A stretch of DNA of 64,000 bases from Myxococcales bacterium (GCA_021806645.1 JAJZQX010000012.1:73764-137763); one strand, 5' to 3'; positions 12,864 to 35,771 are shown, counted from the stretch's first letter. Notes: generated from the sequence alone by a model not told the origin. Made by a program: numbers and translations.

Positions 12864-13976
12864 ATGCGTACCCGCTGGCTCGGAATCCTCGCGGTCCTCT
12901 CCACCGTCGTCCCGGTGGCGGCGCTGGGCGTGGACGCCCCGCACGACGGCTCGGCCACCGTCGGCACCTGCGAGAACTGCCACATGATCCACAACGCGCT
13001 GGGCGGCACGCTGATCAACGCGCCGGACAACAACACCGCCTGCTCGTCGTGCCACAACCCCTTGTCCACCACCCCCAGCGGGGCCCGGCTCGGCCTCCCG
13101 TGGCTCACCGAGGACCAGGCGTTCCCGGGCAAGAGCGGCCAGCAGCACCGCTGGGACGCGCTGGCCGATTCGCCGGCGTTCGGCGCGGCGCAGCCCACCG
13201 ACTCCGGGATGCTGAAGCGGATCAAGGACGGCCGGATCCAGTGCGCCGCCTGCCACGACCCGCACGCCGACGTGAAGGCGTTCGACCCGACCGCGCTGCA
13301 CACCTCGATCGCGCCCGGCGTCGCCACGGCCGTGACCGGTGGCACCACCACCATGACCATGACGCTGACGGCGCCCGCCGCCGCCGCCGTGACCAGGGGG
13401 TACCGGGTCCAGGTGGAAGGCATCTCGGGCGCCCAGTTCCGGCTCGCTATCAGCCACAACGCCAAGACCACCGACGGCGCGCCGATCTGGTGGGTCAACA
13501 ACGGGACCAGCTGGGTTCAAGGTGCGCTCGGAACCGGCACGCAGCTCTGGTCCACCGGCGCGGCCATCGCGCTCGACGACGGGACCAGCGTGCAGGTGAC
13601 CTTCACCGGCACCGCCGCCGTCGGCCAGTTCTGGGACTTCTACGTCTCCTACGCCCACCTGCGGGCCAGCAACGTGGCCGACGCCATGTGCCTGCAGTGC
13701 CACGCCTCGCGCAACCAGACCCACGTCACGGTCGAGGGGCCGGGGAACGGCGTGACCATCTTCAGCCACCCGGTCGGCGAGGCGCTCAACGCCAACGGCA
13801 AGGGGTACGACCGGGCCGCCGCCAACGTGCTCGACGCCAACGGCGCGCTCCAGGCCACCGGCGACGGCAACCCCACCAACGATCTCACGCTGGACGGCGG
13901 CACCACGGTCCGCTGCACCACCTGCCACAACGTCCACAACGCCGACTCCAACTCACTCACCACCGATGCTCGGTAG
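12864..13976 (+). CDS. Pentahaem c-type cytochrome with an OmcS-like N-terminus and an inserted non-haem domain
   Basis: Signal peptide MRTRWLGILAVLSTVVPVAALG. Five CXXCH motifs: CENCH, CSSCH, CAACH, CLQCH, CTTCH. First motif is HDGSATVGTCENCHMIHNALGGTLIN. About 140 aa between haem motifs 3 and 4 contain no Cys. Confidence 0.85.
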   Translation: MRTRWLGILAVLSTVVPVAALGVDAPHDGSATVGTCENCHMIHNALGGTLINAPDNNTACSSCHNPLSTTPSGARLGLPWLTEDQAFPGKSGQQHRWDALADSPAFGAAQPTDSGMLKRIKDGRIQCAACHDPHADVKAFDPTALHTSIAPGVATAVTGGTTTMTMTLTAPAAAAVTRGYRVQVEGISGAQFRLAISHNAKTTDGAPIWWVNNGTSWVQGALGTGTQLWSTGAAIALDDGTSVQVTFTGTAAVGQFWDFYVSYAHLRASNVADAMCLQCHASRNQTHVTVEGPGNGVTIFSHPVGEALNANGKGYDRAAANVLDANGALQATGDGNPTNDLTLDGGTTVRCTTCHNVHNADSNSLTTDAR

Positions 13977-14040
13977 CCCCGGGGCGCACGTGAAGACCAC
14001 TCAGCGCAGCTCCCGCATGGTGAACGACATGGCCGCAAGG

Positions 14041-17000
14041 ATGAACTCCGTGAAGACCCTGGCTCGCGCCGTTGCCGCGGTCGCCGTCGCGTTGCTCGCG
14101 GTGCAGGCGGGGCCGGCGGGGGCGGCCGGCACAGCCGGCAAGAGCTACAACATCTCCTGCGACACCGGCACGACCGCCAACGTGTCGCTCTACAACATCA
14201 CCACGGGCACCCAGTTCAAGGTGCGCTGCAAGATCATCGACCAGGCGACTGGTGCGGGGATTACCGGACTCGTCAGCGGTGACATCACCATCAGGCAGAT
14301 CACGGACGTCACCACCAACACCGCGCTCACCAGCGGCACCGACTACACCGCCGGCAACCTCGTGGAGGTTGGAAGTGGCGTTTACGATTTCTTGCTGACC
14401 ATCAGTTCGGGCGTTGCCACGGGTGACATCCTTGAGATCCAGATGCGCGAGGACGGTGGCAATGAGGTCGACACGGAGCGCCTCTTCGTCACCCAGTATG
14501 TACGCGTTGCAACTGCTGGCGTCGCTGGAAACGCCCGCTACATCGAAGTCCAGCCGACGACCAACGCTGACATCAACACGGCGGCGGGGACCTACACAGT
14601 GCGGGTTCGCTTCATCGATGCGCTGGGCAACTACTTCAATCCCGGCACCTTGACCTGGAGCATCAATCGATGGCGCGACAGCACCGGCGCCACCATCACC
14701 ACCGGCACCCCTTCGGCTGCAGCCTACGACACCACCAACAACTGGTACCTGCTCAGCATCCCCTACAGCACGGCACTGACCAACGGCGACCGACAGTACA
14801 TCAACATCGGCGCCAGGATCGGTAACTACCGGTACCTGGCCGGTTTCGGTCTGACCGCGGTCACCGCCCAGACCAATACGCCGCTCGCCGTGCCAACCTT
14901 CACGACGCCTGGCCTATTTGCTCCGGCCAACACCACCACGGTCGGCAACGGCACCGATCCGGCCGGTGGCACGGTCGGCCCCGGGGGCGCGGCCACCATG
15001 GTGGACGCCTTCACGCTGCAGACCAGCGCCGGCACCGACACGATCACGGCGGCCAGCGTGACGCTCTCGACCGTGAGCGGCGTCGGCCTGGTCGAGATCA
15101 CCAACGACGCCGGCACGACCGTCTACGGTTCGACCAGCAACCCCGCGGCCACGCCGGTCGCCGTTTCGCTCACCACCAGCATCTCCGCCACCACCACGCT
15201 GACGCAGTACAGGGTCCGCGTCACGCCGCTGGCGCATGCCGCCATGCCGGCGGTGCCGGGCGGGACCTACGCGGTGACGGCCACGGTGACCGGGCTCACC
15301 TCGACCAACGGCAAGACCTACGCCGACAGCGGCAGCGGCACGCTCACCATCGACAACCTCTCCCCGGGCGACGTGACCGGCCTCTCGGCCACGCCCGGCA
15401 ATACGCAGCTGGTGGTCAACTGGACCAACCCGGCCACCGACTACGCGCGGACCATGGTCCTGTATCGCGCCACCACCGCCATCAGCGACGTGCCCGGCGA
15501 GGGAGCGACCTACACCGCCCCGGGCACGCTCGGAGCGAGCACCATCGCCTACGTGGGCGGCACGGCCGGCGCGGCCGGCACCACCACCATCACCGGCCTG
15601 ACCAACGGCACGCTCTACAACTTGAAGGTCTTCGTCCAGGATGCCTATGGCAACTGGTCCACGCCGGGCGCCACCACCTCGGGCACGCCGACCGCCCCCG
15701 CCAACACCACCACGGTCGGCAACGGCACCGATCCGGCCGGTGGCACGGTCGGCCCCGGGGGCGCGGCCACCATGGTGGACGCGTTCACGCTGCAGACCAG
15801 CGCCGGCACCGACGCGATCACGGCGGCCAGCGTGACGCTCTCCACCGTGAGCGGCGTCGGCCTCGTCGAGATCACCAACGACGCCGGCACGACCGTCTAC
15901 GGTTCGACCAGCAACCCGGCGGCCACGCCGGTCGCCGTGACGCTCACCACCAACATCTCCGCCACCACCACGCTGACGCAGTACAGGGTCCGCGTCACAC
16001 CCCTGTCGCACGCCGCCATGCCGGCTGTGCCGGGCGGGACGTACGCGGTGACGGCCACGGTGACGGGGCTCACCTCGACCAACGGCAAGACCTACAGCGA
16101 CACGGGAAGCGGCACGCTCACCATCGACAACCTCTCCCCGGGCGACGTGACCGGCCTCTCGGCCACGCCCGGCAATACGCAGCTGGTGGTCAACTGGACC
16201 AACCCGGCCACCGACTACGCGCGGACCATGGTCCTGTATCGCGCCACCACCGCAATCAGCGACGTGCCCGGCGAGGGGGCGACCTACACCGCCCCGGGCA
16301 CGCTCGGAGCGAGCACCATCGCCTACGTGGGCGGCACGGCCGGCGCGGCCGGCACCACCACCATCACCGGCCTGACCAACGGCACCCTCTACAACGTGAA
16401 GGTCTTCGTCCAGGATGCCTATGGCAACTGGTCCACGCCGGGCGCCACCACCTCGGGCACGCCCGCCGTCCCGGTCATCAGCCTGGCCGTCGGCAACGGC
16501 ACCAACCCGGCCAACACGGCGCTGCTCTGCCCGTCGCCGACCGCGCCGACCGGCCCCACCATGCTCGACGCCTTCACGCTGCAGGCCCTGGTGGCCGACG
16601 ACGTGGTGACCCGCATCACGGTCCAGCTCGCCCCGGCGGGCGCCTGGATCAACGTGGCCACCGTGGAAATCACAGACGCCGCGGGCGGCACCACGGTCTA
16701 CGGCAGCGCCATCCCCGGCGGCGACCAGGTCAACGTCTACGTCACCGGCATCGCCCCGACCGTGGCCGCCGGCGCGGTCAGCTACAACGTCCGGATCACC
16801 CCCAAGACCCACGCGGCCATGCCGGCCCCCAACACCGGCCAGCAGTACGCCACCACCGGCACCGTGGTCTCGGTCGCCTCCAACAACCCGCGCACCTACG
16901 GCGACGCCTCCAGCGCCACCGTCACCATCGACAACCTGGCGCCGTCAGAGGTGGTCTGGTCCGGGGTCACCACCGGCGCCACCAACATCCAGCTCAACTG

Positions 17001-20000
17001 GGTCACGGCCACCAACGTGGTGGTGCTGCGCAAGCAGGGCGGGCCGGTCACCGACTCGCCGGTCGAGGGGACCACCTACACCGCCGGCGCCACCATCGGC
17101 GCCAGCACCGTGGCCTGCGCCGGAACCATGGCGCTCTGCAACTCGACCGGCCTGACCGCCGGCACCGCCTACTACTTCAAGGTCTTCACCGCCGACGCCT
17201 GCGTCAACTACTCGCTCGGCGGCCCGGTCGGTCCGCTCTTCGCGGGCGGCCTCAACGAGGGCAGCGCCACCGCGAGCACGCTGCTGCCGGTGGTGGGGAT
17301 CATCAACCCGAAGAACCCGGCCACGGTGACCAGCTCCGGTGCCGGCTTCCGGGTCCAGGTCCGCGCCTTCAGCCGGATGAACGCGGGCGTCGCCCAGCCG
17401 TTCGCCGCCGGTGCCGTCCGGCTCAAGGCGGCCACCCCGGCCCAGCCCTTCGTCGCCACCTGCGACGCGGCCAACTACCCGATCGCGCTGGCGCTCAACG
17501 CCAACTACCCGAACAGCACGGTAGCGGCCACCGACAACCACGGCGTCTACGAGGCCACGGTCACGGTCGCCAAGGGGGCGTACACGTTGCGTGCCTGCGC
17601 CACCAACGCCAGCGGCACCGTCCTGTCGGGTCCGGTCGGCATCACCGTCAACGACGGCTCGGCCGGCTCGCCCAGGGGCGACGGCAACCTGCTGGTCCGC
17701 GACAACGGCGCGCAGCTCTGCAACGACTGCCACGCCATCGCCACCCACGCCTCGGAGACGGTCGGCAACAAGTACGGCTCCTGGTACGCGGCCTGCCGCG
17801 ACTGCCACACGCCGCACAGCACCACCAACGTCGAGCTGATCCGCAAGCAGATCACGCCGCCCGGCTACCGCGGCCAGCAGCCGCCCAGGGACGTGGTCTT
17901 CTACGACAGGTCCACCGGCTTCGCCGCGACCGCGTACGCGAATTCCGGCGGCACCGGCGTCTGCCAGGTCTGCCACACCGCCACCACCTACTACCGGAGC
18001 GACGGAACGCTGGCCGGCACCCACAACCCCAACCAGGCCTGCACCGCCTGCCATGCCCACGAAAAGGGGCTCAAGGCCTCGTGCACCACGTGCCACGGCG
18101 ACAAGACCGGGACCTACGCGGCCATCTCCGGGGCCGACACCAACGCCAACGCCGCGCCGCCGACAGCGGCCGACAAGGTGACCACCACCGGCGTGAAGGT
18201 GGGCGCGCACCAGGCCCACGTCAACGGCAACGGCACCGTCGCCACCTACCGGACCAACCCGATCGGCTGCGCCGACTGCCACCCGGTCCCGAACTCGCAC
18301 AACGGCACCACCGACGCGGCCTGGAGCGTGCTGGCCACCAACACCATCGTCAACGGGACGAGCCTCGCCGTCGCCCCGACGCCGGCCGCCGGGCTTGGCG
18401 CCTACAACGCCACCTGGGAGGCGACGCCGACCTGCACCAACGCCTGCCACGGCGCCAACCTCCCCTCCAACGCCGTGAAGCCGGCGCCGAGTTGGACCGC
18501 GGCGGGTGGCCTGACCTGTGCCTCCTGCCACGGCGCTCCGCCTCCGCTCTCGGCCACCGCCAACCAGAACCACCCGCAGAACACCACCTGCGCCACCTGC
18601 CACGGGGCCGGGTACGTCAACGGCGGGCCGCTGGCGGCTGCCGCCAAGTCCACGCACGTCAACGGCACGCTCGACCGGATCACCGCCGGCTGCACCTCCT
18701 GCCATGGTGAGCTGGGCGCGCCGGGCGTGACGCTGACGGCGAACACGGTGAAGGCGGCGCCGGGCGCCTCGGGGAGCGGCACCAACTCCTTCGACACCAC
18801 CGGCCTCGCCACCGGCAACGCCATCGGCGCGCACAAGGCCCACCTGGCCGGTTCCACGGGCACGCCGCGCTGGCGCTCGGCCGTCATCGCCTGCAACGAG
18901 TGCCACCTGTTGCCGCCGAGCGACACCGACATGGCCCACGCCACCGGCGCCGGCACGGGTGGGGCGCGCGCCACCCTGACCTGGACCGGCGGCATCGCGC
19001 AGAGCACGGCCTTCGAGACCAAGACCGCCTCGTACGCGCAGCCGACCTGCACCAACGTCTATTGCCACAACCCCAAGAGCACCGACACGGCGGCGACGAC
19101 CAAGACGCCGGCCTGGAACGGGGCCACCACCCTGGCGCAGTGCGGTTCCTGCCACGGGCTGCCCCCCACCACCGGGACCGCCCACCCGACCGGCGTGACG
19201 GAGTGCGCCAGTTGCCACCCGGGCTACAGCGCCACCATGCCGACCAGCACCAGCACCATCGCGGCGGTGAACACGCTGGCCCACATCAACGGCCAGCTCG
19301 ACGGCGGCGGCGACTGCACCGGCTGCCACGCCAGCGCGCAGGGGCCCCGGCGCCCCATCGTTCCAGAGTTCGCGCTGGCCTGGTCGCACAAGCGCTCCGC
19401 CGGCGGCGCGGTCACCAAGTGGGACTGCGTGGTCTGCCACATGGAAGGGGACCCGACGACCGGGAACACCACGGCGGTCCACAAGGACGGCTTCGTCAAC
19501 CTGAGAGACCCGGACACCGGGGCGAACATCAAGGGCGTGACCTTTGCCGGGACGCCGGGCAGCTACACCGCCACGGCCACCGACGCGACCTTCACCACGT
19601 TCAGCCGCAACCTGGGCAGCGCCACGCTGGAGCCGGCGGTCCAGGCCATCATGATCAACCAGTGCCTCAAGTGCCACGACGCCAACGGCGCGGCCAGCAC
19701 GCTGGCGCGGGTGCCGACCACCGGGACGGCGGAGAAGCCCTTCGGCACCACCATCGCCGGCGCGGCCTACACCGGAGCCGGCGTGACCGCCAACGGAGTG
19801 ACCGGCGGTGTCGCCGACGTCAACGCCGCCTTCGCGACGACCAACTCCTCGTACCACCCGGTGACCGGGAAGCAGAACAACTGGTACGCGAAGGACGTTC
19901 GCATGGTTGCGCCCTGGAACATGGGGGTGACCACCAGGGCCGGGACCGTCAACCTGACCACGTGGGGCCCACTACTCTCCTGCTGGGACTGCCACTCCGA

Positions 20001-20571
20001 CCCCGCCGACACCGGCGTCATCACCAGGACGGTCACGGCCCACGGCGCGGCACAGACGCTTCGCGGCACTCCGACGTATAGCGGAACGCTCACGTCGCGA
20101 CCGGCGAGTTCCACGACCTACCCGGTCACCCGGCCGGCAACGGCGGTGACGCTCTGCATCGTCTGCCACGATCGCTACGACACGTGCGGTGGGGCGGGCA
20201 CCAACAACTGCTCCAGCGCAACGCACGGCGCGGGGTCGGCGGAGTCCAGCAACCTCAACAGCGGCATGACGGGGACCATGCAGTTCGCCTGCAACTGGTG
20301 TCACAGCAGCGGAAGCCTCACGGCCGTGGTGCGGCCGATTCGAGGGCAGGACGTGCACGGCGTGAACACCGTGGCGACCGGCGGCTCGGCCAAGTCGGGC
20401 AGGTGGGCGACGGCCAACCCGAAGCCGTATGCATTCATCCGCAACACCTCCCTCCTGGGTGACCACTCACCCCGCAGTATCCTCGGGACGACGTACTCGC
20501 CCGGATGCGACATGGTGACCAGTCCCTGCAGCCAGGGCTTCAAGACCTACACGGTCGGCGGCACCTACTAG
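14041..20571 (+). CDS. Giant (~2176 aa) secreted multihaem cytochrome. The N-terminal ~1200 aa are Ig/FN3-like repeats; the C-terminal ~1000 aa carry 18 CXXCH motifs plus one CX3CH and one CX4CH.
   Basis: Signal peptide MNSVKTLARAVAAVAVALLAVQAGPAGA (starts at 14017 or 14029 are also possible). Three units each combine a beta-sandwich with an FN3-like domain. Two modules resemble the Geobacter CxxxxCH...CXXCH domain (PTCTNACHG...LTCASCHGAPP and PTCTNVYCHN...AQCGSCHGLPP). Confidence 0.85.
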   Translation: MNSVKTLARAVAAVAVALLAVQAGPAGAAGTAGKSYNISCDTGTTANVSLYNITTGTQFKVRCKIIDQATGAGITGLVSGDITIRQITDVTTNTALTSGTDYTAGNLVEVGSGVYDFLLTISSGVATGDILEIQMREDGGNEVDTERLFVTQYVRVATAGVAGNARYIEVQPTTNADINTAAGTYTVRVRFIDALGNYFNPGTLTWSINRWRDSTGATITTGTPSAAAYDTTNNWYLLSIPYSTALTNGDRQYINIGARIGNYRYLAGFGLTAVTAQTNTPLAVPTFTTPGLFAPANTTTVGNGTDPAGGTVGPGGAATMVDAFTLQTSAGTDTITAASVTLSTVSGVGLVEITNDAGTTVYGSTSNPAATPVAVSLTTSISATTTLTQYRVRVTPLAHAAMPAVPGGTYAVTATVTGLTSTNGKTYADSGSGTLTIDNLSPGDVTGLSATPGNTQLVVNWTNPATDYARTMVLYRATTAISDVPGEGATYTAPGTLGASTIAYVGGTAGAAGTTTITGLTNGTLYNLKVFVQDAYGNWSTPGATTSGTPTAPANTTTVGNGTDPAGGTVGPGGAATMVDAFTLQTSAGTDAITAASVTLSTVSGVGLVEITNDAGTTVYGSTSNPAATPVAVTLTTNISATTTLTQYRVRVTPLSHAAMPAVPGGTYAVTATVTGLTSTNGKTYSDTGSGTLTIDNLSPGDVTGLSATPGNTQLVVNWTNPATDYARTMVLYRATTAISDVPGEGATYTAPGTLGASTIAYVGGTAGAAGTTTITGLTNGTLYNVKVFVQDAYGNWSTPGATTSGTPAVPVISLAVGNGTNPANTALLCPSPTAPTGPTMLDAFTLQALVADDVVTRITVQLAPAGAWINVATVEITDAAGGTTVYGSAIPGGDQVNVYVTGIAPTVAAGAVSYNVRITPKTHAAMPAPNTGQQYATTGTVVSVASNNPRTYGDASSATVTIDNLAPSEVVWSGVTTGATNIQLNWVTATNVVVLRKQGGPVTDSPVEGTTYTAGATIGASTVACAGTMALCNSTGLTAGTAYYFKVFTADACVNYSLGGPVGPLFAGGLNEGSATASTLLPVVGIINPKNPATVTSSGAGFRVQVRAFSRMNAGVAQPFAAGAVRLKAATPAQPFVATCDAANYPIALALNANYPNSTVAATDNHGVYEATVTVAKGAYTLRACATNASGTVLSGPVGITVNDGSAGSPRGDGNLLVRDNGAQLCNDCHAIATHASETVGNKYGSWYAACRDCHTPHSTTNVELIRKQITPPGYRGQQPPRDVVFYDRSTGFAATAYANSGGTGVCQVCHTATTYYRSDGTLAGTHNPNQACTACHAHEKGLKASCTTCHGDKTGTYAAISGADTNANAAPPTAADKVTTTGVKVGAHQAHVNGNGTVATYRTNPIGCADCHPVPNSHNGTTDAAWSVLATNTIVNGTSLAVAPTPAAGLGAYNATWEATPTCTNACHGANLPSNAVKPAPSWTAAGGLTCASCHGAPPPLSATANQNHPQNTTCATCHGAGYVNGGPLAAAAKSTHVNGTLDRITAGCTSCHGELGAPGVTLTANTVKAAPGASGSGTNSFDTTGLATGNAIGAHKAHLAGSTGTPRWRSAVIACNECHLLPPSDTDMAHATGAGTGGARATLTWTGGIAQSTAFETKTASYAQPTCTNVYCHNPKSTDTAATTKTPAWNGATTLAQCGSCHGLPPTTGTAHPTGVTECASCHPGYSATMPTSTSTIAAVNTLAHINGQLDGGGDCTGCHASAQGPRRPIVPEFALAWSHKRSAGGAVTKWDCVVCHMEGDPTTGNTTAVHKDGFVNLRDPDTGANIKGVTFAGTPGSYTATATDATFTTFSRNLGSATLEPAVQAIMINQCLKCHDANGAASTLARVPTTGTAEKPFGTTIAGAAYTGAGVTANGVTGGVADVNAAFATTNSSYHPVTGKQNNWYAKDVRMVAPWNMGVTTRAGTVNLTTWGPLLSCWDCHSDPADTGVITRTVTAHGAAQTLRGTPTYSGTLTSRPASSTTYPVTRPATAVTLCIVCHDRYDTCGGAGTNNCSSATHGAGSAESSNLNSGMTGTMQFACNWCHSSGSLTAVVRPIRGQDVHGVNTVATGGSAKSGRWATANPKPYAFIRNTSLLGDHSPRSILGTTYSPGCDMVTSPCSQGFKTYTVGGTY
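14926..16473 (+). repeat. Near-identical tandem duplication (2 x 774 bp, 2 x 258 aa) inside the giant cytochrome gene. A third, diverged copy follows at about 16474-17230.
   Basis: Copy 1 (14926-15699) and copy 2 (15700-16473) both begin gccaacaccaccacggtcggcaacggcaccgatccggccggtggc. By eye, about 7 aa differ out of 258. Confidence 0.85.
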
Positions 20572-20592: not shown

Positions 20593-21894
20593 ATGAACGC
20601 CCCCGCGTCGCACCGGGCTCCAATGCCACGGTGCGGCGCGCCCGCTCCAATGGCCGACCCGTCCATGCCGACGCCCGAAGCACCAGCAGCGCCCGCGCCG
20701 CGCGTTCGCCCCCCACCGAGCCTGGGGCGCCGGGTCTTCAGCGTGGTTTCCTCGCCGCGGCTGGCCATCGCGCTGCTCATCGTCGTGCTGGCCTGCTGCG
20801 TGGTGGGCGTCACAGTCTTCACGCCGGAGCCGGCTTGGCGGCTCATCTTCAACACGCTCTGGTTCAACGGCCTGCTGGTGCTGCTGGCGCTCAGCTCGGG
20901 CGTCACCTTCCTGGCCCGCACCTGGGGCCGGAAGCTCACGCTGGTCTCCGTGGGTATGATCCTGTTCCACGTGAGCTTCATGAGCCTGCTGGGCGGCGTG
21001 GTCTTCAACAGCTTGTTCCACTTCAAGGGCGTGCTGCGGCTCACGGAAGGCGAGATCCTGCCCAACGGCGATCCCGCCAGCTACGACACCGTCGATGCTG
21101 GGCGCTTCTTCGACTTCACCCGCCTCCGCGGCGAGACCACCCTGGTCAAGATGCACCGCGGCTACAAGGTGGACGGGCAGGACAAGCGGGCCGCCTACGA
21201 GATCGCCGTCGGCGAGGGGTCGTCGAAGACGACGGGAATCATCTACATGACGCAGAACCTGGACTACCGCGGCGTGCGGTACCTGGTCTCCAAGGAGGGG
21301 TACTCGATCGGCGTCGTCCTCCACGACAAGCAGGGACGCGAGCTGTACGCGGCCATGGTCCCGCTGCAGAGCCTGCAGCGGGGCGAGAACGCCCACCTCT
21401 ACACCACCGGCTCCGCGCTGGCGCCAGGCGCCTTTCCGTTCCCGCCGCCGCCGGACTCCGCCGCGCTCCTGCTCCAGGTGGGGTACGTGCCCGATCAGCG
21501 GAAGGAGCGGGCCGGGCAGGTCGAGTTCTTCACCTGGCCGGTGAGCCAGGCGGTCGCTGGCCACGACGGTGCCAGGGGCGCGGGGCACGCGTCCGGCCAG
21601 GCCGCGTCGATCGGGGGCGGCAAGGACACGGAGCCTGCCGCCTCGGGCAAGGTGGCCGTCGGCGGCACCTTCGACGCCGGCGACTACAAGCTCGAGGCGA
21701 GAGAGGTGCGGTACTGGGTCGGCATGACGGTACGACGCGACCCCGGTCTGACCGTCATCCTCTCCAGCCTCTGGGCGGGGCTGGCAGGCATGACCATGAC
21801 CTTCATCGGACGGATCGTGCAAGACTCGAAGCGAGGCAAGCGCGAGGCGAGCAGCTCTGAACCGGGCGCGACAGCGCCGAAGGGGGTCCCATGA
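20593..21894 (+). CDS. resB: System II cytochrome c biogenesis protein ResB/Ccs1 (CcsB)
   Basis: VFSVVSSPRLAIALLIVVLACCVVG...WFNGLLVLLALS...LFHFKGVLRLTEGE.. is a typical ResB N-terminus, and there is a C-terminal TM segment. The stop overlaps the ccsA ATG (ATGA). The start could be any of several Met codons between 20593 and 20665. Confidence 0.8.
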   Translation: MNAPASHRAPMPRCGAPAPMADPSMPTPEAPAAPAPRVRPPPSLGRRVFSVVSSPRLAIALLIVVLACCVVGVTVFTPEPAWRLIFNTLWFNGLLVLLALSSGVTFLARTWGRKLTLVSVGMILFHVSFMSLLGGVVFNSLFHFKGVLRLTEGEILPNGDPASYDTVDAGRFFDFTRLRGETTLVKMHRGYKVDGQDKRAAYEIAVGEGSSKTTGIIYMTQNLDYRGVRYLVSKEGYSIGVVLHDKQGRELYAAMVPLQSLQRGENAHLYTTGSALAPGAFPFPPPPDSAALLLQVGYVPDQRKERAGQVEFFTWPVSQAVAGHDGARGAGHASGQAASIGGGKDTEPAASGKVAVGGTFDAGDYKLEAREVRYWVGMTVRRDPGLTVILSSLWAGLAGMTMTFIGRIVQDSKRGKREASSSEPGATAPKGVP

Positions 21895-22715
21895 ACGTCG
21901 AGCAGGTGCTGTTCTGGTGCGCCGTCGGATTCTACGGGCTGAGCGCGTTCGCCTACGTCTTCGGCTTCATCGCCGAGAACGAGAAGCTGCTCTCTGGGGG
22001 GCTGGCCACGGCCGTGCTCGGGTTCGCCGCCCACCTGACCAGCATCGCCCTCCGCTGGGTGACGAGCAGCGTGACGCCGTTCATCACCATCTCCGAGTCG
22101 CTCGCCCTCGGGACCCTCATGGCGATGGCCCTCTTCCTCATCCTCCAGGCCTCGAACAGGAAGGTCCGGCCGCTCGGTGTCTTCGTGCTGCCGGTGGTCT
22201 TCGTGCTCATCGGGTGGGCCGGCACGCTGCGGGCGGCCTCCGGATCCCAGCTCGCCCCGGCGCTGCAGAGCGGCTGGCTCTGGGCGCACATCGTCGGCGC
22301 CACCATCGGCTTCAGCGCGGTGCTGATGGCGGCGGGGCTGGCGATGATGTTCCTGCTCAGGGAGAACCGGTCGGGGGGGATCTACGACCGGCTGCCGTCG
22401 CCGGCCGACCTCGACCGGCTGGCCTACCGGTTCGTCGCCGCCGGTTTCATCATGTACGGCCTCATGATCGTCACCGGGGCGCTCTGGGCCGACCAGGCCA
22501 AGGGCAGCTACTGGAACTGGGACCCGGTCGAGGTCTGGTCGCTGGTCTCCTGGCTCATCTACGGCATCTACCTCCACCTGCGCATCACCATGGGCTGGCG
22601 CGGGCGGAGGCTGGCCTGGTACGCGCTGGCGGCGGTGGCGGTGATGATCGTCAGCTACTGGGGCATCCCGTTCTCGGTCGAGACCTTCCACAAGGGCTTC
22701 CGCGTCGAGCACTAG
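21891..22715 (+). CDS. ccsA: System II cytochrome c biogenesis haem lyase subunit CcsA/ResC
   Basis: Polytopic membrane protein with the W-rich haem-handling motif (WADQAKGSYWNWDPVEVWS) and conserved His residues. Confidence 0.9.
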   Translation: MNVEQVLFWCAVGFYGLSAFAYVFGFIAENEKLLSGGLATAVLGFAAHLTSIALRWVTSSVTPFITISESLALGTLMAMALFLILQASNRKVRPLGVFVLPVVFVLIGWAGTLRAASGSQLAPALQSGWLWAHIVGATIGFSAVLMAAGLAMMFLLRENRSGGIYDRLPSPADLDRLAYRFVAAGFIMYGLMIVTGALWADQAKGSYWNWDPVEVWSLVSWLIYGIYLHLRITMGWRGRRLAWYALAAVAVMIVSYWGIPFSVETFHKGFRVEH

Positions 22716-22728: not shown

Positions 22729-24075
22729 ATGAACCGCCACCTCACGACGCTCGCCGCCGCGTGTGCCGCCTGGCTGTCGCTCTCGGGCTGCCGCTGCGGG
22801 AAGCCGGAGCCGGTGCGCGGCGCGCCGCCGCTCGCAGCCGCAGCCGCCGTCGCCGCCGTGGCCGTGGCCGACAAGCCCGCCGTGCTCGCAACCCTGCCGG
22901 ACGAGCGGGAGCGGGAGTTCGTCTTCGCCGAGCGCGGGGGCGGCGTCGCCTGGGCCGATGAGAGGGGCGGCCGCTTCCAGGTGGTCCACGACGGCCGCGC
23001 CGGCAAGACCTACGACGCCGTGGGGCCGATCGCCCTCAGCCCGGACGGGCGGCGCTGCGCCCACGGGGCGCAGGCGGACGGCCAGTGGCGAATGGTGGTA
23101 GACGGCGTGGAAGGGCAGGGGTTCGACGAGGTCCAGTCGCCGGTCTTCAGCCCCGACGGAGCGCACCTCGCCTACCAGGCCAGGGCCGGGGAGCGGTGGC
23201 ACCTGGTCGTGGACACGACGGTGGGCCCTGGGACCAGGAGCCGCCTCCTCGGGCCGGAGTTCGGCGCCGACTCCTCCAGGATCGCCCTCATCGACGACGC
23301 CGACGACCAGGGTTTCGGCCGGCTGGTGGTGAGCGACCTGGACTTCAAGGGGCAGACGGTGGTCGAGGCGCGCGCCTCCGAGCTGCTGGTGAACGGGGAC
23401 CGGACCCAAGTCGCAGCCATCGGCGCGAGCGGCGGGAAGCAACGGGTGCTGACCTTCGCCTTCGACCGGCCCGGCCAGGTGAGGCGAGGGCCGGACTTCG
23501 ACGCCGTCTCCCGCCTCGCCTTCGGGCCAGGCGGCCGCTCGCTGGCCTACCTGGCGGAGCGGGCCGGCCAGCGCATGGTGGTGCTGGACGGGAAAGAGGA
23601 GACGGTGCCTCCGGGTGAGCTGTTCGGGCCGCTGGTGGTCCGTCCCGACGGCAAGGCGGTGGGGATCTTCCGGCTGGACGGTGACGCCGTGCGGCTCCAC
23701 CAAGCCTTCGCCGGGGCTGGGCCGGACGAGGTGACCCCAGGGGGAGGTGAGGAGCTCACCTACTCTCCCGGCGGCTTGCACGCCTACGCCTCCAGCCGCA
23801 GGGGACGGCAGCTCGTCGTGGTCGGCGGCAAGGACGGACCGCCCTTCGACCGGGTGGTGTCGCCGTCGTTCAGCCCCGACGGCAGGTTCCTCGTCTACCG
23901 CGCCCGCCAGGACGGGCGGCGCTTCGTGGTGGTGGCGGACCCCAGCGGCAAGACGACCCGCCAGCTGCCGACCTACGAGCAGGTCTTTCCGGTCCGGTTC
24001 ACGGCTGACGGCAAGTCGGTGGCCTACGGGGTGAAGGACGGCAAGAGCCTGCGCTGGGTCGTCGAGCCGCTCTGA
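22729..24075 (+). CDS. Lipoprotein with PD40/WD40-like (TolB-type) beta-propeller repeats
   Basis: Lipobox LSLSGC. Recurrent FSPDG/LSPDG...AY motifs (LSPDGRRCAHGA, FSPDGAHLAYQA, FSPDGRFLVYRA, FTADGKSVAYGV). Confidence 0.7.
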   Translation: MNRHLTTLAAACAAWLSLSGCRCGKPEPVRGAPPLAAAAAVAAVAVADKPAVLATLPDEREREFVFAERGGGVAWADERGGRFQVVHDGRAGKTYDAVGPIALSPDGRRCAHGAQADGQWRMVVDGVEGQGFDEVQSPVFSPDGAHLAYQARAGERWHLVVDTTVGPGTRSRLLGPEFGADSSRIALIDDADDQGFGRLVVSDLDFKGQTVVEARASELLVNGDRTQVAAIGASGGKQRVLTFAFDRPGQVRRGPDFDAVSRLAFGPGGRSLAYLAERAGQRMVVLDGKEETVPPGELFGPLVVRPDGKAVGIFRLDGDAVRLHQAFAGAGPDEVTPGGGEELTYSPGGLHAYASSRRGRQLVVVGGKDGPPFDRVVSPSFSPDGRFLVYRARQDGRRFVVVADPSGKTTRQLPTYEQVFPVRFTADGKSVAYGVKDGKSLRWVVEPL

Positions 24076-24133
24076 TCCGTCGAAGGTCGCTCCCTGGGCC
24101 AGTCCATACCCAATCGAGGTCCCTCAAACGCAA

Positions 24134-24168
24134 CTTTGGGCGCCCAAAGTGGATTTCGGGGGGGGGGG
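24134..24168 (+). repeat. Perfect 16-bp palindrome (CTTTGGGCGCCCAAAG, 24134-24149) followed by a G11 homopolymer (24158-24168)
   Basis: Read directly from the sequence. It lies between the lipoprotein gene and the first TA cassette. The palindrome could form a 6-bp stem with a 4-nt loop and act as a terminator. Confidence 0.7.
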
Positions 24169-24221
24169 CTGGTTTTCCACGCCGGATTGGCGAAGCAGCT
24201 CCGCGCGGATAGTATTGCCAC

Positions 24222-24524
24222 ATGGGTGCGCATCTCGACCTGGATCGCGACCAGCTCGCGGCGTTCTGTCGGCGGCACCACGTGCGCCGGCTGGCACTGT
24301 TCGGCTCCGTGCTGCGCGACGACTTCGGTCCGGACAGCGACATCGACGTGCTGGTGGAGTTCGAGCCCAACCACGTGCCGGGCTTCATCGCGCTTCACGG
24401 CCTTGAAGAGGAACTGGGGCAGTTCATGGCAGGGCACCCTGTCGATCTGGTCACCGCCGGGGCGCTCAACCACCGCATCCGTGATCGAGTCCTGGCGTCG
24501 GCCGAGGTCCAGTTTGCAGCATGA
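24222..24524 (+). CDS. mntA: MntA-type nucleotidyltransferase antitoxin
   Basis: LALFGSVLRDDFGPDSDIDVLVEF is the GS-X10-DxD minimal nucleotidyltransferase signature. Confidence 0.75.
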   Translation: MGAHLDLDRDQLAAFCRRHHVRRLALFGSVLRDDFGPDSDIDVLVEFEPNHVPGFIALHGLEEELGQFMAGHPVDLVTAGALNHRIRDRVLASAEVQFAA

Positions 24525-24670
24525 TGACGGCGTCTACCTCGGCGGCCATCATCGGCATGAGGCACCGGGTCGTCCACGATTACATGAGCGTGGACCAGGA
24601 GGTGGTCTGGAAGACGGCCACGCAGGAGATGGCGCCGCTCCTGGCGATGTTCCAGCGCCTCCGCGGGTGA
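24521..24670 (+). pseudogene. hepT: N-terminally truncated HepT (DUF86) toxin remnant of 49 codons
   Basis: My own translation is MMTASTSAAIIGMRHRVVHDYMSVDQEVVWKTATQEMAPLLAMFQRLRG. It retains the Rx4HxY motif (RHRVVHDY) but lacks the ~60-70 N-terminal residues seen in the intact copy at 25952. ATGA overlap with mntA. Confidence 0.55.
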
Positions 24671-24917: not shown

Positions 24918-24934
24918 GCCCAAACGTCCTGGAC

Positions 24935-27706: not shown

Positions 27707-28280
27707 GCACATCATTCGAGTGGCGGCCGGACTCGCGGACTCCCTTGAGATCGTGGTCGTCGGTAGCCAGTCCATTCTCGGAGCCCTGCCTGACGCTCCG
27801 GCCGAGCTGCTCGAGTCCATGGAGGCCGACGTCTACGCGCTCCATGCGCCTGAGAAGTCGGAGGTCATCGAGGGGGCGATCGGAGAGGGTTCCCCGTTCG
27901 AGACCATGTACGGCTATCGAGCCCAGGGGGTCGGACCGGAGACCGCCAAGTTGCCGATCGGGTGGGAGAACCGCGTCGTGCGGGTGCAGAACCCCAACAC
28001 GGACAACAAGATCGGCTACTGCCTGGAGCCGCATGACATGGCGGCGGCGAAGCTCGTGGCGAGTCGGGAGAAGGACAAGCCGTTCGTTTCCGCCATGCTT
28101 CGGCTGGGAGTGATCCAGGAAGCGACCCTCGCCGAGCGGCTCACGACGTTGCCGATCGAGCCCGAGCACAGGGAACGGTTGCGGCAGTGGCTGAGCGCGG
28201 AGATGGAACGCCAGAGGTCGATGTCGCCTGGCCGCCCGGGGCTTGGCGGGCGCGGGCGGGATTCCGGGCCTGCACGGTGA
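27687..28280 (+). CDS. DUF6036-like / nucleotidyltransferase-fold protein (candidate TA or Abi component)
   Basis: MRRKELEHIIRVAAGLADSLEIVVVGSQSILG... resembles families I recall as DUF6036. I could not verify this. Confidence 0.5.
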   Translation: MRRKELEHIIRVAAGLADSLEIVVVGSQSILGALPDAPAELLESMEADVYALHAPEKSEVIEGAIGEGSPFETMYGYRAQGVGPETAKLPIGWENRVVRVQNPNTDNKIGYCLEPHDMAAAKLVASREKDKPFVSAMLRLGVIQEATLAERLTTLPIEPEHRERLRQWLSAEMERQRSMSPGRPGLGGRGRDSGPAR

Positions 28281-28383
28281 CGCTCCCGGGCGCCCGGACA
28301 TTTCGTTTACCCGGCAGACCTTTCACTCCGGTTTCCGCATCGAGTACGATCGCGTCTCACGGGGGAAGGTAGGAGGAGAATCG

Positions 28384-29745
28384 TTGAAGCTCTGCATCAT
28401 CAAGCCACCGCTTCCCTTCGGCTGGACGCCGGTGGCGCCGCCCATCCTCGAGTACCTGGCGGCGCTCACCCGCCAGGCCGATCCCAGCATCGACATCGAG
28501 GTCTACAGCGCCAGCGCCACGCCGGACGTCTTCGACACCCTGGAGTGCGATCTGGCGGCCATCAGCCTGCTGACGCCGACCTCCGTCCCCGGCTACCGGA
28601 TCGCCGACGGGCTGCGGGCGCGCGGCATCAAGGTGGTGGTCGGCGGCATGCACGCCACGGCCCTGCCGGAGGAGGCCAAGCTCCACGCCGACGCGGTGGT
28701 GACCGGCGAGGCCGAGTCGGTCTGGCCGCGGGTGCTCGCCGACTTCCGCGCCGGCACGCTGCAGCCCTTCTACAGGGGCGAGCAGCTCCCGCTCGAAGGC
28801 CTGCCCACACCGCTCTACGGCCTGCTGAAGCACGGCCACGACTTCCGCATCGTCAACACCGCCCGCGGCTGCCCGTACCCGTGCAGCTTCTGCACGGTGA
28901 GGAAGGTCTTCGGCTCCAAGATCCGCATGCGCCCCATCGACGACGTGGTGCGCGACGTGGACGCCATGCCGGGCGGCATGTACATCAACGGCGACGAGAA
29001 CATCTGGTGGCTGGGCAAGACCGACCGGGCCATCGAGCTCTTCACCGCGCTGCGGGGGAGCAAGAAGAAGTGGATGGGCTTCGGCAGCCTGGCGCCGGTC
29101 CTCTCTCCCGATGGCTCGCGCATGCTCAAGGCGGCCAGGGCGAGCGGGATGCTGACGGTCTGGGTCGGGTGGGAGTCGATCACCGACGGCGGGCTCGAGG
29201 AGTACCGCGCCGACCGGAAGGTGGGGATCGACCGCGAGCGCGCGGTCCGGACCTTGAAGGACCACGGCATCGACGTCTCGCTCTTCTTCATGCTCGGCTC
29301 GCGCGCCGACTCGCTCGACGACTACCACCGCGCCGTGGACCTGGCCGACCGGCTCGGCGTGAGCATGCACCCGTCGCTGGTGGTCCCGTATCCCGGCACC
29401 GACCTGCGCAAGGAGTACCAGCCCTACCTCTACAAGGAGCTGGGCTGGGAGTACTACACCGGGGCCTACGCGCTCTTCGAGCACCCGGACCCGGGCATGA
29501 CCCCCGAGGTGCGGGAGGAGCGGTTCTACGAGACCTCGCTGGAACTGCTCAAGCTGGGACGGATCTGGAAGCACATGTTCAAGGTCCCGGCCTCGGGCTT
29601 TCCCCACGCCCACATCCTCTCGCTGATGAACCAGCTCCCGGTCCGCAAGGGGATGAAGATCGCCTTCGAGAAGTGGAAGGAATCGAAGCAGGCCGTGCGC
29701 GAGAAGCAGGCACGGCCCGGGGCCGACTCCGCCCTCACCGGATAG
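28384..29745 (+). CDS. B12-binding-domain radical SAM protein (COG1032 class)
   Basis: TTG start with GGAGGAG 4 nt upstream. N-terminal Rossmann-like B12 domain (AISLLTPTSVPGYRIADGLRARGIKVVVGGMHAT). Radical SAM cluster motif CPYPCSFC (CX3CX2C). Confidence 0.85.
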   Translation: MKLCIIKPPLPFGWTPVAPPILEYLAALTRQADPSIDIEVYSASATPDVFDTLECDLAAISLLTPTSVPGYRIADGLRARGIKVVVGGMHATALPEEAKLHADAVVTGEAESVWPRVLADFRAGTLQPFYRGEQLPLEGLPTPLYGLLKHGHDFRIVNTARGCPYPCSFCTVRKVFGSKIRMRPIDDVVRDVDAMPGGMYINGDENIWWLGKTDRAIELFTALRGSKKKWMGFGSLAPVLSPDGSRMLKAARASGMLTVWVGWESITDGGLEEYRADRKVGIDRERAVRTLKDHGIDVSLFFMLGSRADSLDDYHRAVDLADRLGVSMHPSLVVPYPGTDLRKEYQPYLYKELGWEYYTGAYALFEHPDPGMTPEVREERFYETSLELLKLGRIWKHMFKVPASGFPHAHILSLMNQLPVRKGMKIAFEKWKESKQAVREKQARPGADSALTG

Positions 29746-29822: not shown

Positions 29823-31319
29823 ATGCCGACTCCCACAGCCGCCACCACCGACCTGTCCGGCCCCGCCCTCGAGCGTCACCGGCTCACCGAGGAGGTCCTC
29901 GGCTACATCGAGGCCGGCGTGGACGCCGAGGTCCCCGACTTCAACGGCTCCTGCCTGCGGATGTTCGCCCTGCACTACGAGGTGAACCCGATCTTCCGCG
30001 AGTTCTGTGACGTCAAGAAGGTCCGCCCCGGCGACGTGACGCGCTGGCAGGACGTCCCGCTGGTCTACAACGACATGTTCAAGACCCACCTGGTGGCCTC
30101 CTTCCCGCTGGAGAAGGCGGTCATGGGCTGCCTCACCGGCGGCACCACCAGCCTCACGCAGCGCGGCCGGATCTTCCGCGACGAGGAGGGGAAGAAGCTG
30201 GTCTTCGGCGCCAACAAGCGGATGACCGGCGCCTACCTCTTCCCCGACTTCGAGGAGGGCAAGCGCTGCCGCATCCTCATCCTCGCCCCCAGCCCGGAGA
30301 TGGCCCCGTCGATGGGCATGGCCATCGGCATGGAGCAGACGCGGACCCACTTCGGCACGCCCGACAGCCAGTTCCTGCTGGGCCGGACCGGGATCGACGT
30401 CAACGGTCTCTTGAAGGCGCTGCGAGAGGCGGAGGCGAGCGGCGTGCCGGTGGCGATCATCGGCGCCACCTCCGCGTACGTCTACTTCTTCCAGGCCTGC
30501 AAGCGGAAGAGGTGGAGCTTCAAGCTGCCGAAGGGGAGCCGGGTCTGCGACGGCGGCGGCTACCGCGGTCGCTTCGGGACCGTCACCCGCGACGACTACT
30601 ACGCCATGGTGGAGGCGACGCTCGGGGTCCCGTCCTCCCACTGCGTCAACGTGCTCGGCGAGGCCGAGACCGCCACCAACCTGTTCGACGACGCGCTCCG
30701 CCGCCACGTCCAGGGGCTGCCGCCGCGGGACCGGATCCGCCCGGTGCCGCCCTGGTCGCGCGTGCTGGCCATGGACATCGACACGCTCGAGCCGCTCCCC
30801 GACGGGAAGGTCGGGCTGATGGCCCACTGGGACCTCGCCAACGTCCCCACCGTGCTGGCGGTCATCACCGACAACCTCGGGTACACCGCCGACCAGGGGC
30901 GCGCCTGCGAGATCGTGGGGCGGGCCAAGCTCGAGGGCGGCAAGGTCTCGCCGCTGCCCGACGAGCGCCCGATCGGAGGCATGGGAGACTCGGCCATCTT
31001 CCGGATGCTCGAGACCTACGTGAACTTCTCCATCGACCTGAAGATGCTCACGGCCAAGGCGCCCCCGGCCGAGCCGAGCACGCGCGAGGAGATCGAGGCC
31101 CGTCCGGGCTCGGTCGCCTCCTGCCCGCAGGTGGTGGACGAGATCCTGGTCTCGCAGGGCAACGAGGACGCCGCGCGCCAGCGCGACGCGTCGCTGCGGA
31201 CGTTCAAGGACCAGACCGAGCGTCCCATGGAGTGGTTCGTCGAGCAGGCCAGGAAGCAGAAGCTCGCGGACCACCCGGCCGGTCTCCAGTCGGAGGAGCC
31301 GGGGCCCAACAAGCTGTAG
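29823..31319 (+). CDS. LuxE-like acyl-protein synthetase / adenylate-forming enzyme (ANL/PaaK-like superfamily)
   Basis: N-terminus F..LHYEVNPIFREFCD...RWQDVPLVYNDMFKTH...CLTGGTTSLTQRG matches the LuxE layout as I recall it. There is a ~100-aa C-terminal extension. ATG at 29823 within ORF 28545..31319. Confidence 0.65.
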   Translation: MPTPTAATTDLSGPALERHRLTEEVLGYIEAGVDAEVPDFNGSCLRMFALHYEVNPIFREFCDVKKVRPGDVTRWQDVPLVYNDMFKTHLVASFPLEKAVMGCLTGGTTSLTQRGRIFRDEEGKKLVFGANKRMTGAYLFPDFEEGKRCRILILAPSPEMAPSMGMAIGMEQTRTHFGTPDSQFLLGRTGIDVNGLLKALREAEASGVPVAIIGATSAYVYFFQACKRKRWSFKLPKGSRVCDGGGYRGRFGTVTRDDYYAMVEATLGVPSSHCVNVLGEAETATNLFDDALRRHVQGLPPRDRIRPVPPWSRVLAMDIDTLEPLPDGKVGLMAHWDLANVPTVLAVITDNLGYTADQGRACEIVGRAKLEGGKVSPLPDERPIGGMGDSAIFRMLETYVNFSIDLKMLTAKAPPAEPSTREEIEARPGSVASCPQVVDEILVSQGNEDAARQRDASLRTFKDQTERPMEWFVEQARKQKLADHPAGLQSEEPGPNKL

Positions 31320-33275: not shown

Positions 33276-33626
33276 TCACCCATGGACCAACAGGTACTGG
33301 TACAGCGTGCCGGCCGCGAAGACCACGCCGAGCAGGGCGTGCTTCACCTTGAGGAGCTGGATCCGGCTCCGCTCCATGTCCCCGGTCCAGCCGAAGACCT
33401 TCCAGGTGACCATGCGGACCACGCCGGTGGCCACGATGACGGCCAGGCTCACCCAGGTGACCACCAGGAACTTCCGCTCCAGCCCCGGGACCAGGGGGCC
33501 GGCCAGCAGCCAGGCGGGCCGCTGGGTCTCGCGGTGGAGCATGGTGAGCAGGATGAGCGTGCCGATCCACGTGCCGGTCGCCACGTCGTGGACGAAGGCG
33601 TTGAGGATGGTGAGCCGGTCCCGCAT
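33276..33626 (-). CDS. Small integral membrane protein (3-4 TM helices), function unknown
   Basis: Hydrophobic helices (WIGTLILLTML, FLVVTWVSLAVIVATGVV, ALLGVVFAAGTLYQYLL). Codon usage matches neighbouring genes. It is divergent from radical SAM gene 2. Confidence 0.55.
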   Translation of the reverse strand: MRDRLTILNAFVHDVATGTWIGTLILLTMLHRETQRPAWLLAGPLVPGLERKFLVVTWVSLAVIVATGVVRMVTWKVFGWTGDMERSRIQLLKVKHALLGVVFAAGTLYQYLLVHG

Positions 33627-35324: not shown

Positions 35325-35771
35325 GTGGCTGGGGCGGGGCGCTGGGGCGCGCGGCGCGCCGTCGCGCTCGCGCTGCTGGGCTCGCTCGGCGCGGTGGCCG
35401 GCTGCGCCGGGATCTTCGGTCCGCGCCGCCCCTGGGTCGAGTTCACGCCCTACCCCGAGTCGCAGGTGGCCGGGGTGCGCGACCCGCACGACTACCTCGG
35501 CAAGCCGCTCTGCCAGCGCTGTCACCTGCCCGGTCGTGGGGGTCTGACCAGCGGCGCCATCTCGCTCTGCGTGAGCTGCCACGCCTTCGGCCACGGCAAC
35601 CACCCGGTGGACGTGGTCCAGAAGGCGCCGGCCACGGGGATCCCGCTGCTGGAGGGCGGGCGGGTGGCCTGCCACAGCTGCCACGATCCGCATGACCTGA
35701 AGCGCAACCGGGCGGGCTTGCGCTTCCCCTTCACCGAGCTCTGCCTCCGCTGCCACACCCGCCACGCGTAG
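35325..35771 (+). CDS. Tetrahaem c-type cytochrome lipoprotein (c3/c7-like)
   Basis: GTG start 3 nt after the radical SAM stop. Lipobox GAVAGC. Four CXXCH motifs: CQRCH, CVSCH, CHSCH, CLRCH. Confidence 0.8.
   Translation: MAGAGRWGARRAVALALLGSLGAVAGCAGIFGPRRPWVEFTPYPESQVAGVRDPHDYLGKPLCQRCHLPGRGGLTSGAISLCVSCHAFGHGNHPVDVVQKAPATGIPLLEGGRVACHSCHDPHDLKRNRAGLRFPFTELCLRCHTRHA

Follow-up and report, generated by a model that had tools for sequence, protein, structure and literature searches.

A ResB/CcsA pair with an altered WWD haem site, a candidate System II synthase for TIGR01904 giant cytochromes

Does a cytochrome c maturation pair that lies directly behind a giant multihaem cytochrome serve the whole cell, or is it reserved for the cytochromes beside it? 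The question arises in a stretch of 64,000 nucleotides (nt; ca. 70% G+C) of a Myxococcales bacterium, here called the window, in which the genes for ResB/CcsB (20593..21894, plus strand) and CcsA (21891..22715, plus strand), the two subunits of a System II cytochrome c synthase, follow a gene for an exported giant cytochrome of 2201 amino acids (aa) (13966..20571, plus strand). In Geobacter, Anaeromyxobacter and related bacteria, metal reduction and extracellular electron transfer are driven by multihaem cytochromes, and the closest named relative of the window CcsA is a protein of Anaeromyxobacter oryzae (67% identity). Our analysis suggests that the pair is probably, though far from certainly, an accessory synthase dedicated to the TIGR01904 family of giant cytochromes, because a pair with an altered haem-site motif travels with cytochromes carrying CX4CH and CX3CH sites, and with a conserved set of enzyme genes, in three phyla.

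The giant cytochrome gene ends with TAG at 20569-20571 and the ResB gene begins with ATG at 20593, leaving a gap of 21 nt; the ResB stop and the CcsA start overlap in ATGA at 21891-21894, and 13 nt separate the CcsA stop from a gene assigned by family searches to a PD40/TolB-like beta-propeller lipoprotein (22729..24075, plus strand; lipobox LSLSGC). From this tight packing, the four genes are judged to be co-transcribed. An initial annotation of the window had described the 21-nt spacing and located two non-standard haem sites, CTNACH and CTNVYCH, in the giant cytochrome, and all of these positions proved exact when open reading frames (ORFs) and motifs were checked. It had also spoken of a complete System II maturation pair, which is right for ResB and CcsA, both of them complete, but does not extend to the remaining components, since the window ORFs that were scanned included neither CcdA nor ResA/CcsX. 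Within the 64 kb, which hold seven cytochrome genes, there is one ResB/CcsA pair and no second one.

The ResB/CcsA pair and its altered WWD site

CcsA was recognized by Pfam (PF01578, 130.1 bits against a cut-off of 29.9), while its score against the NCBIfam CcsB equivalog TIGR03144 fell just below the cut-off (178.5 versus 187.6), a near miss consistent with a divergent subfamily. As judged from a search against 1.84 billion cluster representatives (50%-identity clusters), the protein belongs to a discrete orthogroup, of which the search gave a single full-length representative (64% identity, 404 bits), and the next full-length CcsA family follows at 41% identity and 224 bits. The window proteins share with Helicobacter hepaticus CcsBA (7S9Y) the four haem-ligand histidines and the WWD architecture, aligning over residues 675-896 for CcsA and 2-115 for the ResB profile described below. 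In this alignment, H133, H229 and H267 of CcsA fall on P-His1, TM-His and P-His2, and these residues, as well as W199, W208, W210, D211, E214 and W216, are shared by the orthogroup and at least 85% of 115 other CcsA representatives.

The WWD domain, WADQAKGSYWNWDPVEVW (22485..22538, plus strand), does not conform to the canonical motif WAxx(A/S)WGx(F/Y)WxWDxKE and reads WAxQxKGxYWNWDPVEVW. K204 (nt 22500-22502) stands where H. hepaticus CcsBA has W833, a position at which every orthogroup member examined has Lys, against Trp in 94% and Lys in 0% of the 115 other representatives. Cys/Ala scanning of the H. hepaticus protein showed that W828, W833, K842 and E843 are needed for synthase activity (PMC6299221). 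The window CcsA also differs at K842, which is essential there and variable among CcsA proteins, and which is replaced by Val. Further residues specific to the orthogroup lie beside the periplasmic His ligands, namely, G136 near P-His1 and a GFRxEH tail after P-His2. Given that the W833 position is Lys and that residues beside the periplasmic ligands are changed while all the haem-ligand His are retained, the external haem pocket has been remodelled with its ligands kept.

The C-terminal tail, an extra relative to H. hepaticus CcsBA, reads GFRVEH in the window (22696-22712) and is invariant in the orthogroup as GFR[IV]EH, with His last; in most other CcsA representatives it faces a gap (89% at the terminal His). 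The nearest representative outside the orthogroup (P0123, 41% identity) has the same tail, with His rather than Lys at the W833 position. His is found there at one further locus (L020) too, which indicates that a wider clade has a non-Trp residue at this position.

ResB is short and divergent. Its match to PF05140 is weak (28.8 bits, cut-off 24.6) and spans residues 119-405 only, there is no NCBIfam match, and a phmmer search of the single sequence against PDB gave no match to CcsBA; a profile of 19 ResB orthologues matched the CcsB half of H. hepaticus CcsBA (7S9Y) with an E value of 8e-6. Hydropathy indicates three N-terminal transmembrane (TM) helices, a periplasmic domain of ca. 250 aa and a C-terminal TM helix, the periplasmic domain being shorter than canonical and much shorter than that of H. 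hepaticus CcsBA. Homology to the orthologues begins at about residue 46, and translation probably starts no earlier than the Met at nt 20650. The TM3 His in GMILFHVSF is invariant in the 19 orthologues and is aligned to the His of LLLHASF in 7S9Y. ResB is thereby predicted to supply the TM3 histidine of the membrane haem channel and, on these alignments, all four haem-ligand histidines are retained across ResB and CcsA, which both appear to be functional synthase subunits.

At three loci (L002, L003 and L004), a 59-aa ORF lies directly 5' of the orthologous CcsA gene (9736-9915 in L002). The L002 ORF matches only ResB residues 360-416, that is, the last TM helix (61% identity), and no full ResB was found within 10 kb at this locus. 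It may be either a remnant or a minimal CcsA partner.

Linkage to TIGR01904 cytochromes and to an enzyme module

The giant cytochrome has Fn3-type repeats in its N-terminal half and a multihaem C-terminal half with TIGR01904 (CX4CH...CXXCH) units. Both models of the Geobacter CxxxxCH...CxxCH domain matched above threshold, PF09698 with 27.9 bits (cut-off 21.7) and TIGR01904 with 47.3 bits (cut-off 27) over three stretches, and no solved structure was found for the TIGR01904 region. Besides 18 CXXCH sites, the protein has CTNACH (18433..18450, plus strand), a CX3CH variant that is the first site of a TIGR01904 unit (WEATPTCTNACHG...CASCHGAPPP), and CTNVYCH (19048..19068, plus strand), a canonical CX4CH that is likewise the first site of a unit, with CGSCHGLPP 31 residues on. 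When the units are aligned, CTNACH is the CX4CH-position site shortened by one residue, and the closest relative locus (L005) has CTNYCH exactly at this position. Both CX3CH and CX4CH are recognised haem-binding motifs (PMC11492766). Neither was found in the 9-, 5-, 4-, 4- and 17-haem cytochromes of the window.

In order to follow the pair in other genomes, we collected at least 37 non-redundant loci, by a one-genome-per-species scan with the orthogroup alignment and two look-ups, from Myxococcota, Nitrospirota and Geobacterales/Desulfuromonadales; their CcsA proteins are 49-90% identical to that of the window. The scan also returned unrelated Bacteroidota matches and missed A. oryzae, and absences in it carry no meaning. 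All counts below refer to the loci listed, 22 of which have at least 6 kb upstream of CcsA and 24 at least 8 kb downstream. Upstream, ResB was present in 17/22, a PD40 homologue in 17/22 and a multihaem cytochrome in 15/22. In all 15 loci with a cytochrome, the orthologous ResB/CcsA genes are preceded by homologues of the C-terminal part of the giant cytochrome, and CX3CH or CX4CH sites are present (15/15), so that the co-occurrence of this CcsA copy with TIGR01904-type cytochromes, which the initial annotation had suggested looking for, was borne out. At the protein level, such sites were found in 25 of the 28 upstream cytochromes, and the other three have 3-5 haems. These patterns argue that the ResB, CcsA and PD40 genes have been inherited together with the TIGR01904 cytochrome family across phyla.

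The linked cytochromes contain 84 CX4CH and 17 CX3CH sites (101 in total) versus 401 CXXCH. The CX4CH consensus is C[ST][NTA][VTI][YS]CH, placed as the first site of a repeat unit and followed by CxxCHG ca. 20-30 residues later, and the CX3CH variants (CTNACH, CTNYCH and CATYCH) take the place of CX4CH within the unit.

Downstream of CcsA, linkage was tighter still. The gene for a B12-binding radical-SAM enzyme (rSAM1; 28243..29745, plus strand, in the window) follows CcsA in 29/34 loci, often 17-47 nt off; it is directly after CcsA in most relatives and is displaced here by an insertion. Where at least 8 kb could be inspected, we found a LuxE-like acyl-adenylate-forming enzyme (29823..31319, plus strand; Pfam LuxE, 72 bits) in 23/24 loci, a 116-aa CopD-like membrane protein (33276..33626, minus strand) in 21/24 and a BchE-like B12-binding radical-SAM enzyme (33807..35321, plus strand) in 19/24. 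The last matches the TIGR02026 BchE model over its full length with 392.7 bits (cut-off 481). Across the three phyla, rSAM1 is 63-88% identical to the window protein, and LuxE is 75-88% identical in most loci, both being better conserved than CcsA itself. This is the novel feature of the neighbourhood: in the loci compared, the tightest linkage of CcsA is to genes annotated as a B12-radical-SAM enzyme, a LuxE-like ligase, a CopD-like protein and a BchE-like radical-SAM enzyme. A tetrahaem cytochrome encoded after the BchE-like gene (35325..35771, plus strand) is conserved only in the Myxococcota loci.

In the CopD-like protein two His are invariant, H13 (FxHD) and H96 (KH), and across 12 aligned orthologues an Arg and a Glu are invariant as well; the two-His pattern could be a bis-His site for metal or haem. 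Its fold was considered as a tie to tetrapyrrole enzymes and found unsupported, since CopD is the sole family match (10/12 members) and HemJ/UPF0093 gave none.

Similar associations were seen around distant CcsA paralogues. In Geomonas, such paralogues (34% identity) are followed by a BchE-like gene, with further ResB genes and a WG-repeat beta protein around them, and a distant paralogue in L045 also adjoins a BchE-like gene. In Geomonas silvestris (L039, 2623-12776), the order is ResB, CcsA, ResB, WG-repeat beta protein, two uncharacterised ORFs, CcsA and BchE-like, so that the theme of ResB/CcsA with a beta-repeat protein and a B12-radical-SAM enzyme recurs in a distant paralogue group.

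Five loci from a Nitrospirae metagenome-assembled genome (MAG) and from Desulfuromonadaceae/Geobacter-type MAGs (L009, L022, L031, L033 and L038) have two Lys-containing orthogroup CcsA genes each, the second copy lying, in several of them, just upstream of the CopD-like gene. No Anaeromyxobacter names were obtained when ten high-GC cluster representatives of CcsA were looked up, and a search with the high-GC representative P0127 showed it to be of a Planctomycetota family. Of the 120 best matches to the A. oryzae CcsA, which reach down to 72% identity, the only ones named as Anaeromyxobacter are A. oryzae itself and a single MAG, which weakly suggests a patchy distribution of the orthogroup in Anaeromyxobacter. 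A literature search on cytochrome c biogenesis in Anaeromyxobacter found nothing usable.

A proposed dedicated synthase and its alternatives

The dedicated synthase that we favour would work as follows. ResB provides the TM3 His, and CcsA the other three His together with the external WWD haem site, altered in that Lys replaces a near-universal Trp. The pair would export haem and ligate it to the TIGR01904 cytochrome family, where CX4CH and CX3CH together make up about one-fifth of the sites, and the altered WWD site may adapt the presentation of haem to these sites. The PD40 propeller could be a substrate adaptor or chaperone, by analogy with NrfG for the CXXCK lyase of Escherichia coli, while thiol reduction (CcdA/ResA) and general cytochrome maturation would come from elsewhere in the genome. 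The pair would also be non-redundant.

The E. coli parallel is one of function only. In System I, the CXXCK site of NrfA is served by the lyase NrfEFG, of which NrfG, a TPR protein, is the dedicated periplasmic adaptor. As in the window, a paralogous lyase and a repeat-protein adaptor are encoded with the substrate, but the window pair is System II rather than System I, and its adaptor would be a PD40 beta-propeller.

Closer precedents exist within System II. In Wolinella succinogenes, NrfI and CcsA1 are experimental cases of substrate-specific synthases (review PMC12285233). There, NrfI (CXXCK) and CcsA1 (CX15CH of MccA) exist besides CcsA2 (CXXCH) as System II paralogues encoded beside a substrate with a non-standard site, and the CcsBA isoenzymes have thiol-reduction components in common. 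The differences are that the W. succinogenes enzymes are fused CcsBA proteins of a member of the Campylobacterota with demonstrated specificity, whereas the window subunits are separate, ResB is short and specificity is predicted; furthermore, the window substrates repeat CX3-4CH many times, and the module adds a beta-propeller lipoprotein and radical-SAM/LuxE genes. A short CcsA/CcsB pair with a modified WWD motif is also known from anammox bacteria, in addition to a canonical pair (PMC4222556). It resembles the window pair, itself probably an additional one, in size (CcsA of ca. 257 aa, and CcsB of ca. 322-335 aa that is largely missed by the Pfam ResB model) and in having an altered Trp-rich haem motif in organisms with unusual haem sites. 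However, the substrates and the gene neighbourhood are others, and the anammox motif, WGxxAWGxYFLWDAK(V/L)(V/L)W, keeps the W833-equivalent Trp that is lost in the window.

The nearest parallel is in Geobacter, where four ResB/ResC pairs, each beside large multihaem cytochromes, have been described, each possibly dedicated to the cytochromes nearby (Aklujkar et al. 2009, PMC2700814). The idea of a pair dedicated to its neighbour was thus already published in 2009; what is new is the tight linkage of CcsA to the enzyme module. Table S5 of that paper gives GSU2893 as an acyl-protein synthetase, GSU2891 as ResB, GSU2890 as ResC, GSU2889, GSU2888 as a radical-SAM protein and GSU2887 with 27 haems (PMC2700814). 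One of the four pairs, GSU2891-GSU2890 (= Gmet_0592..0594), has ResB and CcsA unfused and matches the window in having LuxE, radical-SAM and conserved hypothetical genes and very large cytochromes with ambiguous haem counts. It differs in that the window pair is in a Myxococcota (Anaeromyxobacter-like) genome and in the place of the PD40 gene, which comes after CcsA in the window and before ResB in Geobacter. The paper contains neither the link to the CX4CH of TIGR01904 nor the Trp-to-Lys change in WWD nor the conservation of the enzyme set across phyla (PMC2700814). In our literature search, no paper was found that assigns a function to GSU2888-2893, that ties the pair to TIGR01904 units, the Trp-to-Lys change or radical-SAM/LuxE genes, that links radical-SAM, LuxE or BchE-like genes with CcsA, or that tests CX3CH or CX4CH with CcsBA. 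Nearly all Desulfuromonadia share a resB-ccsB pair adjoining purHDE (bioRxiv 2025.10.22.684050), and because this core pair sits in a neighbourhood unlike that of every orthogroup locus, the orthogroup is accessory in Desulfuromonadia.

Several points weigh against so dedicated a role. The two non-standard sites of the window giant cytochrome are 2 of its 20. Elsewhere, CX4CH is matured by general machinery, as in Desulfovibrio cytochrome c3 via System I, so that spacing alone need not demand a special lyase. At four loci (L002, L009, L022 and L033), CcsA occurs with the radical-SAM and LuxE genes, in a core of five genes, and without ResB, PD40 and cytochrome in the available 4-10 kb upstream. 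More generally, the strongest linkage of CcsA, to the radical-SAM/LuxE genes and not to ResB or the cytochrome, is left unexplained by the picture of a lyase for odd motifs. The orthology to GSU2890/2891 is drawn from published gene order and not from sequence comparison, and in W. succinogenes, to go by the citation of Kern et al. (2010) in PMC12285233, unusual motifs alone are insufficient for recognition by NrfI or CcsA1. The suggestion of the initial annotation that this is a dedicated lyase outside the housekeeping system therefore holds up in part: the discrete orthogroup, the unique WWD change, the 15/15 linkage to CX3CH/CX4CH and the match in gene order to one of the four Geobacter pairs speak for it, while the stronger linkage of CcsA to radical-SAM/LuxE than to ResB or cytochrome, and the separateness of a second cytochrome that had been counted as a substrate (see below), detract from it.

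That same linkage is the starting point of an alternative which we regard as unlikely but not to be passed over, namely, that the specialisation concerns the haem and not the CXnCH spacing. In such a modified-haem or haem-chaperoning pathway, rSAM1 and the LuxE-like, BchE-like and CopD-like proteins would alter or deliver a tetrapyrrole, which CcsA, by way of its changed WWD pocket, would export and attach to the TIGR01904 cytochromes. This is the sole reading that explains why CcsA is tied more tightly to the enzymes (29/34, 23/24, 21/24 and 19/24 loci for rSAM1, LuxE, CopD-like and BchE-like) than to ResB, a tie that holds even in the four loci whose flanks contain neither ResB nor cytochrome. 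In addition, rSAM1 and LuxE are more conserved than CcsA. BchE is the anaerobic Mg-protoporphyrin cyclase, a tetrapyrrole-modifying enzyme, and the second radical-SAM enzyme is a full-length match to it; BchE-like genes also adjoin the distant CcsA paralogues in Geomonas and L045, the changes in CcsA cluster at the haem pocket, and the CopD-like protein has its two invariant His. On the other hand, the BchE score stays under the equivalog cut-off, no chemistry is known for the module enzymes, and lipids and peptides are also substrates of B12-radical-SAM and LuxE-type enzymes; the weaker matches include TIGR04072 and HpnR/HpnJ. The linkage could also be co-regulation, for instance, with a surface-protein modification involving the nearby glycosyltransferases, and a literature search found no modified haem c in TIGR01904 cytochromes of Geobacter. 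Slightly less probable again is the full consequence, in which the pair would be the export and ligation end of an unrecognised tetrapyrrole pathway, with a new covalent haem in Geobacterales, Anaeromyxobacter and Nitrospirota.

We give about as little credence as to this last step to the possibility that the pair is a redundant paralogue of ordinary CXXCH specificity, adding haem-ligation capacity for a protein of 20-50 haems ("efficient expression," Aklujkar et al. 2009). All four Geobacter pairs are beside large multihaem cytochromes (PMC2700814), ordinary CXXCH sites, which need maturation too, make up ca. 80% of those in the linked cytochromes, and the catalytic histidines are all canonical. 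Nevertheless, a dosage copy would not be expected to fix an invariant Lys at the position of an essential Trp across three phyla, and the 15/15 link to CX3/4CH, together with the lack of these motifs in the 4-, 5-, 9- and 17-haem cytochromes of the window, favours specificity for the family.

Least probable of all, the pair would be the only ResB/CcsA pair of the organism, a housekeeping System II that matures all its c-type cytochromes and stands behind the giant cytochrome by chance, as could be read from its being alone in a 64-kb window with seven cytochrome genes and from the closeness of CcsA to the TIGR03144 equivalog score; against this, Geobacter and other Desulfuromonadia carry the orthogroup as an accessory, synteny ties it to a single cytochrome family, the WWD signature departs from the norm, lateral mobility of the module is suggested by proteins 63-88% identical between phyla, neither CcdA nor ResA is encoded nearby among the ORFs scanned, and the 120 best A. 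oryzae CcsA relatives are weak evidence of a patchy distribution in Anaeromyxobacter.

If the pair is indeed a TIGR01904 maturase, it would be a third defined substrate-specific System II synthase after NrfI and CcsA1, and KGxYWNWDPVEVW would be a diagnostic signature for locating such systems in genomes. It would also provide a natural variant at a supposedly indispensable WWD residue, informing on how haem is positioned for thioether formation, and the accessory genes would probably be required for the heterologous expression of giant cytochromes. The coupling to BchE-like, B12-radical-SAM and LuxE-like genes raises the testable question of whether the haem in TIGR01904 cytochromes is chemically ordinary.

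The CALVCH cytochrome and other features of the window

The initial annotation had invoked a second cytochrome, with a terminal CALVCH, in support of the lyase. The motif and its place were as described (40719-40736, minus strand; in a 633-aa protein with 11 CXXCH, 15 residues short of its C-terminus), but as support the protein does not serve, being encoded in a separate operon, on the other strand and ca. 18 kb off. We rejected it as a substrate of the ResB/CcsA pair because it belongs to a separate minus-strand cytochrome/NHL/OmcE-type cluster, and it is probably unrelated to the pair. The gene order of this cluster resembles that of the genes beside the other (core) pair in Geobacter. The C-terminus of this 12-site cytochrome (40689-40736, minus strand), ...SCALVCHGKPHSSLSY, resembles ...TCSNISCHFSTTPVWSAY of TIGR01904 cytochromes (L014 and L017), and a homologue in L027 has CFLSCH at its end; by this resemblance, a terminal non-standard site may be common to both cytochrome families.

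Within the same cluster, a 254-aa tetrahaem protein (48282-49046, minus strand) is a full-length homologue of the Geobacter sulfurreducens nanowire subunit OmcE (7TFS, E 1e-17). Its neighbours encode an NHL propeller, a SurA/PPIase-like protein and a 17-haem cytochrome (49288-50319, 50343-51953 and 51992-53698, all minus strand), the cluster also takes in 35788-40753 (minus strand), and GT2, GT4 and TPR genes are nearby. The combination of OmcE with a glycosylation cluster, known from Desulfuromonadia, is matched here in an Anaeromyxobacter-like genome.

The first cytochrome of the operon is a 5-haem protein with a signal peptide (12864..13976, plus strand; ATG at 12864, ribosome-binding site GAAGGGGA), whose five sites are all CXXCH, with no non-standard ones. 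The Fn3 part of the giant cytochrome contains a tandem duplication (14920-15219 and 15694-15993, plus strand) with a spacing of 774 nt (258 aa), and because the copies are 97% identical over at least 300 nt, the duplication looks recent and internal.

Finally, the conserved module is broken up in the window by inserted genes at 24100-28280 and 31413-33228. The first insertion includes a PIN gene (25138-25545) and a DUF6036 gene (27687-28280), and G+C falls there to 0.667; the second contains an AbiEii toxin as two ORFs (31413-31763 and 31773-32252) with its partner AbiEi (32257-33228).

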